Virus record (IMG/VR): IMGVR_UViG_3300032240_002475
Span: 1 to 64,000 of that record
Direction: 5' to 3' (one strand)
DNA length: 64,000 bases
Origin: a virus
Below the pieces are notes generated by a model, which saw only the letters and a program-made list of their open reading frames with translations, made no database searches and was not told the origin of the DNA. Made by a program: the position numbers and the translations under genes. Of the stretch, positions 1,952 through 36,495 are shown in pieces; position 1 is the first letter of the stretch; every line of letters starts with the position of its first letter.

Positions 1952-2126
1952 TGGCTGTGGTAGGAGGATTCGAACCATCCAAAGGGAGATTCAGTAAATA
2001 ACATCCGCTGGCCAGCTTGGTGGTCTACCCCATATTACTTACCTATTTCTTTGTCCCTGCCCCCGAGACAGGAGGGTGTGTCTGCCAAGGTAGTGACACT
2101 GCACTACCGAATTTCACCATACCACA
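1952..2126 (-). ncRNA. expanded tRNA-like RNA (~175 nt, Asp-like GTC loop, encoded CCA)
   Basis: Acceptor TGTGGTA/TACCACA + G + CCA; T-arm GG-TTCGAAT-CC; anticodon arm CCCTC-CTGTCTC-GGGGG; extra hairpin in the D region and ~80-nt variable arm. Confidence 0.7.
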
Positions 2127-2131
2127 ATGTG

Positions 2132-2216
2132 AGGAGAGTGAGGGATTCGAACCCCCGGTCCTGTTACAGACAATAGTTTTCAAGACTATCTCGTTCGACC
2201 GCTCTGACAACTCTCC
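2132..2216 (-). tRNA. tRNA-Ser(TGA)
   Basis: GGAGAGT acceptor, anticodon arm ATAGT-CTTGAAA-ACTAT, long variable arm, GGTTCGAATCC. Confidence 0.93.
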
Positions 2217-3034: not shown

Positions 3035-3554
3035 ATATATCTTTACTTTTTTATATCCTCTTTTAAGTATCTGATTAATTCTTTATCATTTGGCTGGATA
3101 CTATAATTGTTCTTAAAGAATATTTCATAACTATCACTACCATACTTACCAATACCATATAACATAGTAGCATCATTACCATCCCATATTAAATAATCTA
3201 AACTCATTTGTAAAAGTCTTTTATATCTTATATTAACCATTCCCAAAGGTTTGATAATTTTTTTTACAAATTGCTCATCCGCATTAATCAATTCGGTTGG
3301 AGTTGGAAAATAATAAAGAAATTCAGGCAATACCATCTTCACCGGCTTTCTTCCAGTCTGATTTAACATAATAACACCTATCATATGCTCCCAAGCATTT
3401 GAAATTTGTTTTTGTACCATCAAATCATCACGTAGAGGAACGAATTTCATACTATCTTATTTAATTAGATTATATAGTGGAGAATAACGGATTAGAACCG
3501 ATGTCTTGCACCACTTCGAATCAGGCACGTCTAATGGTTGTACTTCCCATTCTT
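2973..3554. repeat. 48-bp direct repeat (2973-3020 and 3507-3554, 1 mismatch)
   Basis: TGCACCACTTCGAATCAGGCACGTCTAATGGTTGTACTTC(T/C)CATTCTT present twice. Confidence 0.9.
3043..3450 (-). CDS. HhH-GPD DNA glycosylase (MBD4/endonuclease III-like)
   Basis: IMLNQT, PLGM..R, HhH motif LYGIGKYGSDSY. Confidence 0.8.
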   Translation of the reverse strand: MKFVPLRDDLMVQKQISNAWEHMIGVIMLNQTGRKPVKMVLPEFLYYFPTPTELINADEQFVKKIIKPLGMVNIRYKRLLQMSLDYLIWDGNDATMLYGIGKYGSDSYEIFFKNNYSIQPNDKELIRYLKEDIKK

Positions 3555-3810
3555 GGGTGAAAGTATTTGAAACTGCGATTTCAGGGTAATATTGTTGGTT
3601 ATTTTGATGTTCAATCATTTTTGTTTCAACCTGTTCTTTACACCATTCATGAGCATATTTTAACTTGGTGGCATCAAAACGATATATACCATCTTCACCT
3701 ACAAAAAATTTATCAGCTTCACATACCGCATAATCATTCCAAATTGCAGTTGCAAATGATGTTTTACCTGAACCAGGTAATCCTCTTATTAAAAACAGCA
3801 CTCCACTCAT
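3457..3810 (-). CDS. P-loop kinase/ATPase (AAA_33-like), C-terminus apparently replaced
   Basis: Walker A RGLPGSGKT, EADKFF, AHEWC, VSNTFTQEWE; after that the ORF runs into the 48-bp repeat and tRNA-derived sequence. Confidence 0.75.
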   Translation of the reverse strand: MSGVLFLIRGLPGSGKTSFATAIWNDYAVCEADKFFVGEDGIYRFDATKLKYAHEWCKEQVETKMIEHQNNQQYYPEIAVSNTFTQEWEVQPLDVPDSKWCKTSVLIRYSPLYNLIK

Positions 3811-4148
3811 AAATTATTATCTATATTCCATATGTTAAAAAAATCAAATTCGTTTTCAGTTTCCCACCCATGTAATCTCATACTAATTTCATTTCGGGTT
3901 TCCAAAGATAATGCTTTTGCAATAAATTCTCTACTTACTGCGTGAATCATTTGGACCATCATCACAAAATTACAACCTTCATTTTTTAAATGAATTATTC
4001 TATTAATCTTTTCATCTACATATTCAACCTCATCGAAAGTCCTCCAAAAGCGAATACAAATCGTTTGTAATTCTTCGAAGCATTCATCTTTTGGAGGTGT
4101 ATAGAATAATTTAACTGACTTATCCATTATCTTTATTTTGAATATCAT
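3807..4148 (-). CDS. hypothetical protein
   Basis: ORF overlapping neighbours in operon. Confidence 0.6.
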   Translation of the reverse strand: MIFKIKIMDKSVKLFYTPPKDECFEELQTICIRFWRTFDEVEYVDEKINRIIHLKNEGCNFVMMVQMIHAVSREFIAKALSLETRNEISMRLHGWETENEFDFFNIWNIDNNL

Positions 4149-4797
4149 CTAAGTGGTGGTCATAGTCCCCTATTTCAGAAACTTTAGGTCTGTTTCTAAG
4201 TAATGGAACAACTTCCCTATAAACATTGTATGGTCTAAACTCAGTGTGACCGTCCATACCCACATCCATTCTTTGACCTTTACTAAGTTTTAAATTGTTT
4301 GGTAAGTGGCAGTGACCGTGTAAGTGCATCACACCTTTACCAAGACCATCCCACGAACTTATTGGGTAGTGCATCAAACAAAACTTAAACTGTCCCATTT
4401 CAAGTGTATTGTAGTGAGAAACAGATTTAAATAACCCCTGACATCCATCTCTATTGTTTTCAATGTGGTGGTCGTGATTTCCTAACACTAAGTGAATGTT
4501 TTTACAGATGATTCTGTCCCAAAATTCACGTATTTGTTCATATCCACCAAAAGACCAGTCACCAAGGTGAATTAACATATCATCTTGACCAACAACTTTA
4601 TTGATGTTGTTGATAATTGTGGTATTCATTTTTTCTATTGTGGAAAAATCGCGAGTTTGAGACACAGGGATTTCACCTGATGGGGTTCTCCAACTGGTCA
4701 CACCCCTACATATATTCTTGTGAGAATAGTGGGTGTCAGAAGTAATCCATACATTAACTTCTGGGATATTTTTAGTATCTACAGGGACTTTTATCAT
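4120..4797 (-). CDS. phage metallophosphoesterase
   Basis: TSDTHYSH, HLGD, GNHD, HYP, LHGHCH motifs. Confidence 0.9.
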   Translation of the reverse strand: MIKVPVDTKNIPEVNVWITSDTHYSHKNICRGVTSWRTPSGEIPVSQTRDFSTIEKMNTTIINNINKVVGQDDMLIHLGDWSFGGYEQIREFWDRIICKNIHLVLGNHDHHIENNRDGCQGLFKSVSHYNTLEMGQFKFCLMHYPISSWDGLGKGVMHLHGHCHLPNNLKLSKGQRMDVGMDGHTEFRPYNVYREVVPLLRNRPKVSEIGDYDHHLDDIQNKDNG

Positions 4798-25894: not shown

Positions 25895-25969
25895 CGGAGT
25901 CCCGAATTAACGGGAAACCCCCACTCCCATATGGCAGCCAGTCCGTTAACCTGGTGAAGTGGGGTAGGA

Positions 25970-26072
25970 TGTTAAGTAGTAGATATGTAAGCGGGCACAG
26001 GGCTCGGTAAATCGAAATGGTGATGATTCTCTTTACGAGACTACATTGTGGGTTCAAATCCCACCTTAACAA
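25970..26072 (+). ncRNA. tRNA-like RNA (acceptor + T-arm, non-canonical core)
   Basis: TGTTAAG/CTTAACA stem stacked on GTGGG-TTCAAAT-CCCAC. Confidence 0.55.
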
Positions 26073-26104
26073 CAAATAAATTAGTAGGATATAAAATAAA
26101 TGAT

Positions 26105-36097: not shown

Positions 36098-36495
36098 TGG
36101 TGGAGGTGGCGAGAATCGAACTCGCGTCTTACAATATTAACATAAACAGACTACACGTTTAGTACAACATCGGTTCTCAATGTTACGAAATATCAGGTTT
36201 GATGTGTGTGAGAACCCTACCTGCAAACAACTTGGTCTCAGAGTTATTTTAAACGAGCTCTGACCTGTGACCCGTATAGCGGACTTCTGTTCCTAGGTTA
36301 TATGTCCTAACCGACCCGAACGTTGTTCTCTACTATTAAGCAGCAACAACAGACGCTTCTCTAGTTAAACCTAAAGCAGCCATCTTAGCAAAAGTATTGC
36401 CATTTGAATTTTTTCACCGTGGATTTAAGTCATAGATGAATTCTGACTACGTGCCTGCGTACCCTAAGTATCGCAATCAATACCTGGACACCCCC
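36098..36495 (-). ncRNA. ssrA: tmRNA
   Basis: 5' GGGGGTG, 3' GACGCGAGTTCGATTCTCGCCACCTCCACCA with the Ala G-U acceptor pair; internal tag ORF (A)GNTFAKMAALGLTREASVVAA* at 36401-36336. Confidence 0.93.

Follow-up and report, generated by a model that had tools for sequence, protein, structure and literature searches.

The stable RNAs C and D of phage T4 ('species 1 and 2') are small, lie inside the phage's transfer RNA (tRNA) cluster and are processed together with the tRNAs; we know of no bacterial counterparts to them. Among other described RNAs, allo-tRNAs have been proposed to act as suppressors or as regulatory RNAs (PMC5389517), and the non-coding RNAs GOLLD and ROOL are reported to form RNA-only multimers through kissing loops (bioRxiv 10.1101/2024.12.08.627333). 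Here we describe an expanded tRNA-like RNA encoded in the first 64 kb (64,000 nucleotides, nt; hereafter the window, by which we mean this whole stretch) of the 122-kb IMG/VR virus record IMGVR_UViG_3300032240_002475. The window has ~30% G+C and carries 17 tRNA genes and a gene for transfer-messenger RNA (tmRNA); the RNA in question occupies 175 nt of its minus strand (1952..2126). We are confident that a genuine gene lies here, that its product is a stable non-coding RNA of tRNA shape, and that it is the phage member of a large tRNA-like family of class II type found both in phages and in Cytophagales (Bacteroidota), the probable host group. The family was not found in Rfam, and no prior description was found in the literature searched; the main text of a survey of 224 motifs contains no such motif, although its supplementary motif lists could hold it (PMC5737381).

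The RNA runs from its 5' end at 2126 to its 3' end at 1952, RNA position i being window position 2127-i, and as a whole gene it is supported by the sequence, a covariance model and covariation. It lies directly behind tRNA-Ser(UGA) (2131..2216, minus strand; called by ARAGORN and Rfam), with a spacer of 4-5 nt, and the G+C content rises to 0.51 here from about 0.27-0.34 on either side. An earlier note on this DNA had listed a perfect 7-bp acceptor stem, G73, CCA, a T arm and the anticodon loop CUGUCUC; all are present, on the minus strand, as are all the parts described here. The acceptor stem pairs UGUGGUA (2120..2126) with UACCACA, which the discriminator G73 and C74-C75-A76 follow (1952..1962); pairs 3-7 covary, U1 and G2 are invariant in the 34 close and 50 bacterial copies introduced below, and position 75 is variable. 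After U8-G9 comes a D arm (2078..2117) with a 3-bp stem GUG/CAC (G10-U11-G12 with C47-A48-C49, in RNA positions) and a loop that holds A14, the element UUGGCAGA with the GG of the D loop within it, and an inserted hairpin. This optional 7-bp hairpin, GGUAGUG-CAGUGU-CACUACC (2089..2108), had been placed in the D region, and it can now be located more exactly, inside the D loop. The anticodon-type arm (2060..2076) has the stem CCCUC/GGGGG and the loop C32 U33 G34 U35 C36 U37 C38. The T arm (1963..1980) has the form GGA(U)GG-UUCGAAU-CCUCC: the loop is UUCGAAU, and the stem GGAUGG/CCUCC carries one bulged nucleotide. Pairs 50:64 and 51:63 of this stem covary, and some homologues have a bulge-free T stem, GGUGG/CCACC.

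The variable arm is indeed branched, but the ~80 nt first given for it were slightly too many: the arm itself comprises 74 nt (RNA 70-143; 1984..2057), and 79 nt are reached only with the unpaired linkers. From its foot it consists of a 3-bp base, a 4-nt bulge, 2 bp, an internal loop AAAUAG/UGAAU, an 11-bp helix and a branched tip, and its base pairs, 2-bp step and 11-bp helix all show double-sided changes. The 11-bp helix, GUAAGUAAUAU/AUGUUAUUUAC, exists as first proposed, with two G-U pairs among its pairs. The tip (2005..2031) combines a putative hairpin, GGGG-UAGA-CC-A-CC, with the self-complementary 10-mer GCUGGCCAGC (2007..2016), a candidate dimerisation site. The tip is invariant in the first set of homologues; that set was picked with the arm-tip sequence, and conservation of the tip motif within it is uninformative, also on a conceivable pairing of its GAC with the GUC of the anticodon-type loop. 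The motif, U(A/U)GACCAC, returns in divergent phage copies and in bacterial copies.

The earlier note had remarked that the window's canonical tRNAs generally lack an encoded CCA, and this is correct: none of the 17 ordinary tRNAs encodes CCA, and all 17 encode N73-C74, mostly with A-rich sequence after it. As a distinctive trait of the RNA, the encoded CCA does not survive comparison, as the 3' tails of the 34 close homologues read GCCA in just 16, GCAA in 12 and otherwise in 6. Since the tails vary, encoded CCA is no family trait; G73-C74, invariant in 34/34 close and 50/50 bacterial copies, is. No PolyA_pol/CCA-adding enzyme was found in the window's record or in four near-complete relatives and, with none of the window's tRNAs encoding CCA, these would depend on a host enzyme.

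Folding of the window RNA as a single sequence is not significant (minimum free energy -53.3 kcal/mol, z = -0.21; 76 of 200 shuffles fold as well), and ARAGORN makes no call on it. Nor did membership of a known family, which the earlier note had allowed for, emerge from the Rfam search, which found no match at the RNA either at gathering thresholds or at E up to 10. Evidence for the structure comes from homologues. An exact 25-nt search recovered one homologue in the same gene order, a search with the downstream protein recovered more, and an arm-tip pattern matched 8 viral and 39 metagenome stretches; pooled, the searches gave 34 distinct full-length close copies. A covariance model, R1, built on a hand-drawn structure and 13 copies that MAFFT aligned without gaps, scores the window RNA at 192.4 bits (E = 1.4e-46). 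Across the 34 close homologues 98.9% of pair cells hold standard pairs, against 41-55% when the 3' partners are slid, and double-sided changes occur in 23 of 50 pairs; none of 500 shuffles reaches these values. Compensatory change is found in every helix that varies: in 5 of 7 acceptor pairs, 2 of 3 D-stem pairs and 6 of 7 pairs of the D-loop hairpin, as well as in the anticodon stem, three parts of the variable arm and the T stem. Pair 10:25, for example, is G-C in 15 close copies, U-A in 15 and A-U in 4. The compensations can be read in plain MAFFT alignments too. Covariation, unlike single-sequence folding, shows RNA structure beyond chance, and we regard this as decisive. The covariation among homologues that the earlier note had proposed as a check is present, and its view of a functional, conserved, expanded tRNA-like RNA rather than a pseudogene holds: helices, including all four cloverleaf arms, covary in close, divergent phage and bacterial copies alike. 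Three of the close copies (L033, L044 and L053) have acceptor halves from different variants, with 5-6 of 7 pairs formed, and are likely assembly chimeras or recombinants of co-occurring phages; they were retained in the covariation counts.

The close copies belong to a wider phage family. Patterns for the D-loop/anticodon arm and for the 5' acceptor/D arm each matched at least 120 viral stretches, and R1 found a match in 78 of 79 new loci, giving 65 distinct divergent phage sequences of 93 to 174 nt. In this divergent set 96.8% of cells are paired, against 43-56% when slid, and 40 of 50 pairs show double changes. Copies in viral contigs range from 93 to 175 nt overall. The shortest (93-98 nt) are ordinary-looking class II tRNAs with a variable arm of ~18 nt, and ARAGORN calls them tRNA-Asp(gtc), in 7 of the 104 distinct phage and metagenome copies; even on these forms the Rfam tRNA model stays below threshold. 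Longer copies gain arm modules stepwise, at 113, 120 and 145-175 nt. The D-loop hairpin is optional: 5 of the 34 close homologues (151-152 nt) have a normal-sized D loop without it, and none of the 50 bacterial copies has it. A same-strand tRNA lies within 300 nt of 63 of the 104 copies, and in 49 of these 63 it is a tRNA-Ser; 37 of the 104 sit in fetched loci that contain no other tRNA gene. In a different phage lineage (L079, 1873-4864) a 113-nt form has no tRNA in its vicinity and is flanked by a PhoH-like gene and the gene for the large terminase. Exactly one strong copy is present in each of four near-complete relatives of the window phage (176-207 kb). In BLAST searches of 50,697 GenBank phage records the window query matched just the adjoining tRNA-Ser, with nothing similar annotated, the 148-nt form had no match, and the 93-nt form had one weak match of 74 nt.

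The family extends into bacterial chromosomes. The arm-tip pattern also matched a 2.8-kb contig binned with a Cytophagales genome, and when 151 Cytophagales genomes were scanned with R1, 104 had a match at E <= 1e-6; a sample drawn across the phylum gave 14 of 151. The bacterial matches are 110-177 nt long, lie on megabase contigs and often stand in tandem, 4-6 to an array; neither ARAGORN nor Rfam makes a call there. All 50 distinct bacterial copies have U1:A72, G2:C71, U3:A70, G73 and C74, and they share with the phage form a Leu-like D arm, the anticodon stem CCCUC/GRGGG and the T arm. Their core helices are paired in 98-100% of cells, with double changes in 32 of 43 pairs. Six Cytophagales chromosomes (L250, L251, L252, L253, L254 and L258) carry tandem arrays of 3-6 copies with spacers of ~40-90 nt and no asnC-like neighbour, and arm variants were seen to alternate inside a single array. 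At another locus (L243, 1501-1650 and 1660-1809) two adjoining copies beside an asnC-like gene have Glu-type loops, CUCUCUC and CUUUCUC, and an arm module unlike that of the phage copies. In one bacterial locus the sequence reads as if a promoter-like box preceded two copies and a terminator of the hairpin-plus-U type followed them.

The anticodon-type loop was surveyed in a set that had not been selected on it, namely 79 distinct phage copies found by the 5' acceptor/D-arm pattern. G34-U35-C36 is present in 79/79, U37 in 76/79 and C38 in 78/79; position 33 is U in 70, G in 6 and A in 3, and position 32 is C or U. The loop CUGUCUC is identical in all 34 close copies. Among the 50 bacterial copies the loops are CUGUCUC (32), CGGUCUC (8), CUAUCCC (4), CUAUCUC (3), CUCUCUC (2) and CUUUCUC (1), from which a constant motif C32, U35, C36, Y37 and C38 follows, with base 34 free. 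The body of a canonical tRNA is all there: a 7-bp acceptor, a D arm with GG, a 5-bp anticodon stem with a 7-nt loop, a T arm and N73. The decoding loop is another matter, as U33 followed by a purine at 37 is the canonical form and the window copy has U33 but U37.

Identity marks in this RNA point in more than one direction. The identity set of tRNA-Asp is given as G73, G34, U35, C36 and C38 (PMC9976931), and the window copy has all five. The Asp-type features that had been claimed for the RNA are thus kept in phages (G73; GUC in 79/79; C38 in 78/79), but 10 of 50 bacterial copies have a base other than G at position 34, and with base 34 free there Asp identity is no property of the whole family. 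Two further features of tRNA-Asp are lacking: the RNA has U1:A72 rather than G1-C72, which is described as strictly kept in bacterial tRNA-Asp (PMC9976931), and a 74-nt arm rather than the short variable loop of class I. Serine identity is described as G73, G2-C71 and a large variable region (PMC9976931), and here too there is agreement, with a variable arm longer than 10 nt, a 3-bp D stem, G73 and G2-C71; of the Ser determinants C72 and C11-G24, the former is replaced by A72 throughout and the latter by U11-A24 in the window copy, C11-G24 occurring in 35 of 65 divergent phage copies. U1:A72 (rarely A:U) and G2:C71 are kept across the family, and amidotransferases are reported to depend on U1-A72 (PMC9976931). 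In the phage's own tRNAs, U1:A72 is found in tRNA-Gln and G1:C72 in tRNA-Asp and tRNA-Asn. A fixed elbow, acceptor top, G73 and bases 35-38, alongside unfixed positions 33 and 34 and a pyrimidine at 37, fit recognition by tRNA-handling proteins better than recognition by the ribosome.

A palindrome of at least 6 nt stands at a fixed place after U(A/U)GACCAC in 88 of 96 distinct copies (6-12 nt long), as it does in 13.6% of shuffles. It takes 21 different sequences, among them GCCGGCCGGC, GCUGGCCAGC, GCUUGCAAGC, GCAUGCAUGC, UCCGGCCGGA, UCCUGCAGGA, UUGUGCACAA, GCGCGC and GCUAGC; the bearers are related, and the counts are not independent events. The centres are UGCA in 39, GGCC in 30, CGCG in 7, CUAG in 5, CAUG in 5 and others in the rest, and GGCC and UGCA interchange on otherwise identical stems. 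A hairpin would account for the pairing of the outer bases, but not for the self-complementarity of the central four, which makes pairing between molecules the simplest reading: the swapped centre bases would close a 2-nt loop, and palindromes of 6 bases are unable to form a hairpin. Cofolding of two copies gains -20.7 kcal/mol through a 10-bp palindrome contact. Window-type copies thus probably act as a symmetric homodimer joined through the arm-tip palindrome, as these models suggest, and a self-complementary loop at the end of the arm would suit dimeric partners such as class II synthetases. Short palindromes also occur, inconsistently, in the loops of the D-loop hairpin (CACGUG, ACGCGU and GCGCGC; UGCA in the window), where they may represent a second contact site or chance; as a consistent feature they were dropped, since they do not hold across copies.

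In the chromosomes the RNA gene has a recurrent neighbour. An orthologous gene of the Lrp/AsnC family (53-100% identical) adjoins it in 15 of 27 bacterial loci, divergent from the RNA gene in 15/15, across a gap of about 126-385 nt. The best NCBIfam match of this regulator is the AsnC equivalog, at 158-168 bits and hence under the 227-bit cut-off; the second-best family reaches 74 bits. Among solved structures its best match is E. coli AsnC (E = 1.7e-32, the next at 9e-18). E. coli K-12 has asnC and asnA in divergent orientation, 151 nt apart. No asnC-like gene was found within 3 kb of asnA in five asnA-bearing Cytophagales genomes. Among the 151 Cytophagales genomes AsnA is found in 11, an AsnB-type synthetase in 141 and GatB in 137; the RNA is present in 103 of the 137 GatB-positive genomes and in 1 of the 14 GatB-negative ones.

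How might such an RNA work? It would be transcribed with the phage tRNA array, directly behind tRNA-Ser, excised by RNase P and 3' tRNA-trimming enzymes, as tRNA biology leads one to expect, and completed or repaired to CCA at its 3' end by a host enzyme; the last step is suggested because G73-C74 is always encoded and C75 is not, and a phage CCA-adding enzyme was not found in the records searched. The RNA appears to retain what tRNA-handling enzymes would read (the elbow of the L-shape, U1:A72, G2:C71, G73 and an Asp/Glu-type loop), while it would break the rules of decoding (U37 for a purine, U33 unfixed, base 34 free in bacteria, a bulged T stem and a 74-nt arm). The general idea of a non-decoding tRNA that acts off the ribosome seems to us probable, if by no wide margin over doubt. 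Charging by AspRS would be possible, with G73, G34, U35, C36 and C38 all in the phage copies; alternatively SerRS, which reads class II shape and G73 (and G2-C71), could charge the RNA. A class IIb (AspRS-type) core was not found in the phage record G000 (a fragment, 39% complete), nor a class II (SerRS-type) core or TGT in the phage records searched. U1:A72 would be the mark read by tRNA-dependent amidotransferases (GatCAB), and in bacteria the RNA gene, divergent from an asnC-like regulator, would stand where E. coli has asnA. U1:A72 and the asnC-like neighbour together suggest either a carrier that takes no part in decoding and bears an acidic residue while this is amidated, or a mimic that titrates the amidating machinery or signals its state; the phage copy would keep or take over the function of the bacterial RNA during infection. 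As an account of how the RNA works, an off-ribosome, aminoacylatable carrier or mimic for asparagine or amino-acid metabolism is tentative, our favoured candidate with the odds against it. For the whole explanation, mechanism included (a non-decoding, tRNA-processed and probably aminoacylatable mimic tied to asparagine or amino-acid metabolism), we would put the probability at roughly 0.4. Its most specific version holds that AspRS charges the RNA and GatCAB turns Asp into Asn off the ribosome, that AsnC would control this route in place of asnA, that the phage GUC copies would be an RNA auxiliary metabolic gene, and that dimers would form through a loop resembling the human immunodeficiency virus 1 (HIV-1) dimerisation initiation site; such a specific Asp-to-Asn scaffold we consider doubtful.

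Several observations weigh against this explanation. On the side of structure, the alignments A5, A6 and A8 were fitted to the model that we had drawn and are biased towards it; the palindrome could be a feature at the level of DNA, and it is not family-wide, being missing from the 93-120-nt forms and from many bacterial copies; and RNA-library contigs, discussed below, could include carried-over DNA. Aminoacylation, the defined ends and the dimer are all proposals from sequence and models. Charging by AspRS is opposed by U1:A72 in place of the strictly kept G1-C72 of bacterial tRNA-Asp (PMC9976931), by a variable G10 and by position 34, where 10 of 50 bacterial copies carry A, C or U, two of them (L243; CUC and UUC) beside the asnC-like gene; charging by SerRS is opposed by the missing C72 and, in the window copy, C11-G24, and would leave the conserved loop unexplained. 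As to asparagine, other routes to it are open to the hosts: 141 of 151 genomes carry an AsnB-type synthetase, and AsnRS was found in 5 of 5 complete genomes. The RNA does not avoid asnA, being present in 6 of 11 AsnA-bearing Cytophagales genomes; six bacterial arrays of three or more copies lack an asnC-like neighbour; and the correlation with GatB is confounded, as 9 of the 14 GatB-negative genomes measure 1.5-1.7 Mb and are probably one clade. With the negatives mostly from one probable clade, that correlation is no more than a hint.

Of the alternatives, a decoy or sponge survives best, though we think it unlikely. The RNA would then imitate tRNA-Asp/Glu, either resisting cleavage or being sacrificed to it, and would draw off a host factor that targets tRNA: an anticodon nuclease, a synthetase, or a toxin that attacks the acceptor end and prefers long-arm tRNAs. 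Phage tRNAs that counter tRNA-cleaving defences are known, and the conserved anticodon loop with its single change, at position 37, would suit such a role, as would its being the sole tRNA-like gene in 37 of 104 phage loci and the avidity that a dimer would lend. Toxins that act on tRNA ends and prefer tRNA-Ser are also described (PMC11541572). Against it stands the distribution of the family, chromosomal in 104 of 151 Cytophagales genomes among ordinary neighbours and with an amino-acid-type regulator, which speaks for a part in house-keeping or metabolism more than for counter-defence alone; the 10 proteins examined beside the bacterial copies included no defence protein or toxin. It also counts against a decoy that we know of no nuclease specific for tRNA-Asp/Glu in these hosts.

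Quite unlikely, in our estimate, is a Ser-accepting class II tRNA derived from a tRNA-Leu/Ser-type gene, serving as a conversion scaffold like tRNA-Sec or as a missense tRNA like the allo-tRNAs. The D arm of the RNA is nearly identical to the tRNA-Leu D arm of the same phage, and a switch from Leu to Ser identity through the change of A73 to G73 is on record (PMC9976931); the long variable arm, the 3-bp D stem, G73 and G2:C71 agree with serine acceptance, as does the tRNA-Ser neighbour at 49 of the 63 copies that have a same-strand tRNA close by. One difficulty is the strictly kept NUCUC loop: SerRS ignores the anticodon, and a serine model leaves the loop unexplained. To this are added A72 for C72, the lack of C11-G24 in the window copy and an arm that, at 74 nt, far exceeds the tRNA-Ser arms that have been tested.

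A working elongator tRNA-Asp of class II shape is improbable. Charged by AspRS and reading GAC/GAU, it would carry the arm as a tolerated expansion or as a handle for a phage factor. It would explain why GUC, C38 and G73 are kept in phage copies, and it is consistent with the ARAGORN calls on the seven shortest copies and with the 37 copies in loci that have no other tRNA gene; engineered tRNAs with aptamers in a long variable arm are reported to translate still (PMC7590224). But U37 in 76 of 79 phage copies and a base other than U at position 33 in 9 of 79 speak against decoding, as does the occurrence of any base at 34 in bacterial relatives, and a normal tRNA-Asp(GUC) co-occurs in phage records that hold the RNA. 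U1:A72 replaces the G1-C72 described for bacterial tRNA-Asp (PMC9976931), the T stem is bulged, and the score lies under the Rfam tRNA threshold.

The earlier note had also raised an intron-containing tRNA, and a tRNA gene split by an intron or mobile insert in its variable region, with a mature tRNA of ordinary size, would be in keeping with the unusual length and with relatives of 93-175 nt, as though inserts came and went. We consider it highly improbable. Metatranscriptome contigs from two studies (X18 and X20) cover 1954-2087, and some, such as those at 1966-2086 and 1955-2047, extend singly from the T arm across the entire variable arm to the anticodon and D arms; the contigs of three RNA-labelled runs, compared with the RNA gene, show no joint, though contigs can miss rare spliced forms. 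Since these contigs bridge the arm with no joint, the variable arm is most probably not an intron; in addition, its helices covary, phage and bacterial copies retain it, its tip is among the best-conserved parts of the RNA, and Rfam gives no intron or ribozyme match. Several X18/X20 contigs terminate in sequencing adapter, as short inserts would, and the RNA-library contigs differ from the window at 2009 and 2014 together, a covarying pair of the arm-tip palindrome. Cover in X15 falls on the tRNA-Ser part only and X16 is probably DNA; the lack of X18/X20 cover on the coding flanks and on 2104-2122 was not counted as evidence. The contigs support an unspliced RNA, and are no proof of expression level or end positions.

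Weakest of all is a Y-RNA-like (YrlA-type) partner of Ro or another known tRNA-like RNA such as tmRNA, which a phage-encoded, tRNA-like module amid tRNAs might suggest, but for which there is neither an Rfam match at E up to 10 nor a TROVE/Ro gene in five phage records (four of them at least 92% complete), while the two ends pair as an acceptor stem that leads to G73-CCA, unlike the terminal helix to which Ro binds, and the Rfam tmRNA model matches only a separate locus, at 36098-36495.

That separate locus is a phage-encoded tmRNA gene (36098..36495, minus strand; Rfam RF00023, 95.7 bits, full length), and the related contig L002 also has a tmRNA, with the tag GEYNYAIAA. A second odd tRNA-like sequence of ~106 nt lies at 25970-26075 on the plus strand, with an acceptor UGUUAAG/CUUAACA, a T arm GUGGG-UUCAAAU-CCCAC and a GUAG/CUAC stem around ~60 nt; R1 matches it weakly (17.7 bits), its fold has z = -1.09, ARAGORN makes no call on it, and no homologue was seen among the fetched loci. 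Just before it, 71 nt on the plus strand (25896-25966), right after tRNA-Phe, are 93-94% identical in L035, L043, L050 and L057, and follow tRNA-Phe in L043 too; this stretch may be another small structured RNA or a processing signal. The genes around the 175-nt RNA (715-1470, 3043-3450, 3457-3810 and 4120-4797, all on the minus strand) include two calcineurin-like phosphoesterases and an HhH-GPD protein, and a small P-loop protein (AAA_33-like, weak) is also among the 715-4797 genes; together they may be an RNA- or DNA-repair-type cluster next to the tRNA genes.

If the account given here is true, hundreds of phage contigs and about two-thirds of the sampled Cytophagales genomes hold a tRNA-shaped RNA that tRNA finders and Rfam miss. 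It would be a natural case of a tRNA body used off the ribosome, whose arm has grown stepwise (18 to 74 nt) and probably makes an RNA-RNA contact in a dimer, and of a tRNA-like RNA linked to an amino-acid-sensing regulator. The family bears on why phages carry 'extra' tRNA-like genes, on how far enzymes tolerate expansions of tRNA, and on whether multimers are the rule among phage non-coding RNAs encoded close to tRNA islands. A covariance model of the family would close an annotation blind spot in phage and Bacteroidota genomes.

Set beside known systems, the RNA resembles each in part. The stable RNAs of T4 would be alike in being small stable RNAs of a phage tRNA cluster. The HIV-1 dimerisation initiation site is a GC-rich, self-complementary, purine-flanked loop that serves in the context of viral genome packaging; palindrome variants such as AAGCGCGCAA resemble it, and in the dimer predicted here palindromy likewise outlasts sequence change, but the HIV-1 site is not part of a tRNA-like RNA. 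The asnC-asnA pair of E. coli is alike in that AsnC is the closest relative of the regulator, in the divergent arrangement and in its gap (151 nt, to about 126-385 nt at the RNA loci); it differs in that the partner in Cytophagales is an RNA and not asparagine synthetase A. Ordinary tRNA-Asp and tRNA-Glu, as far as described, share the loop, CUNUCxC here matching CUNUCAC there (CUGUCAC in the phage's own tRNA-Asp), as well as G73 and C38 of the Asp set, whereas the RNA has U for A37, U1:A72 for G1:C72, a class II body, an unfixed G10 and, in bacteria, a free base 34.

Allo-tRNAs, as portrayed in PMC5389517, are likewise odd class II tRNAs from metagenomes and phages whose anticodon is at odds with a likely Ser identity, but they have 8/4 or 9/3 geometry and normal arms, unlike this family with its 7/5 geometry, single fixed loop motif and modular arm expansions. 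GOLLD and ROOL are phage or prophage non-coding RNAs that are often found by tRNA islands (bioRxiv 10.1101/2024.12.08.627333; PMC5737381); they are several hundred nt long, not tRNA-shaped and described as cages of 8-14 subunits, whereas only a two-fold contact is predicted here and the RNA has no Rfam match. A further parallel is tRNA-Sec. The two differ in that tRNA-Sec, as described, has a 13-bp acceptor/T domain and the anticodon UCA and decodes, whereas the RNA here is of 7/5 type with a bulge, combines a NUC loop and U37, and carries an arm that reaches 74 nt; no link to selA/selB was seen. Yet tRNA-Sec is also of class II, with G73 and a long arm, departs from the standard cloverleaf and is a scaffold for the conversion of an amino acid (PMC7609411), and as a scaffold tRNA of the kind proposed here it offers the best analogy.

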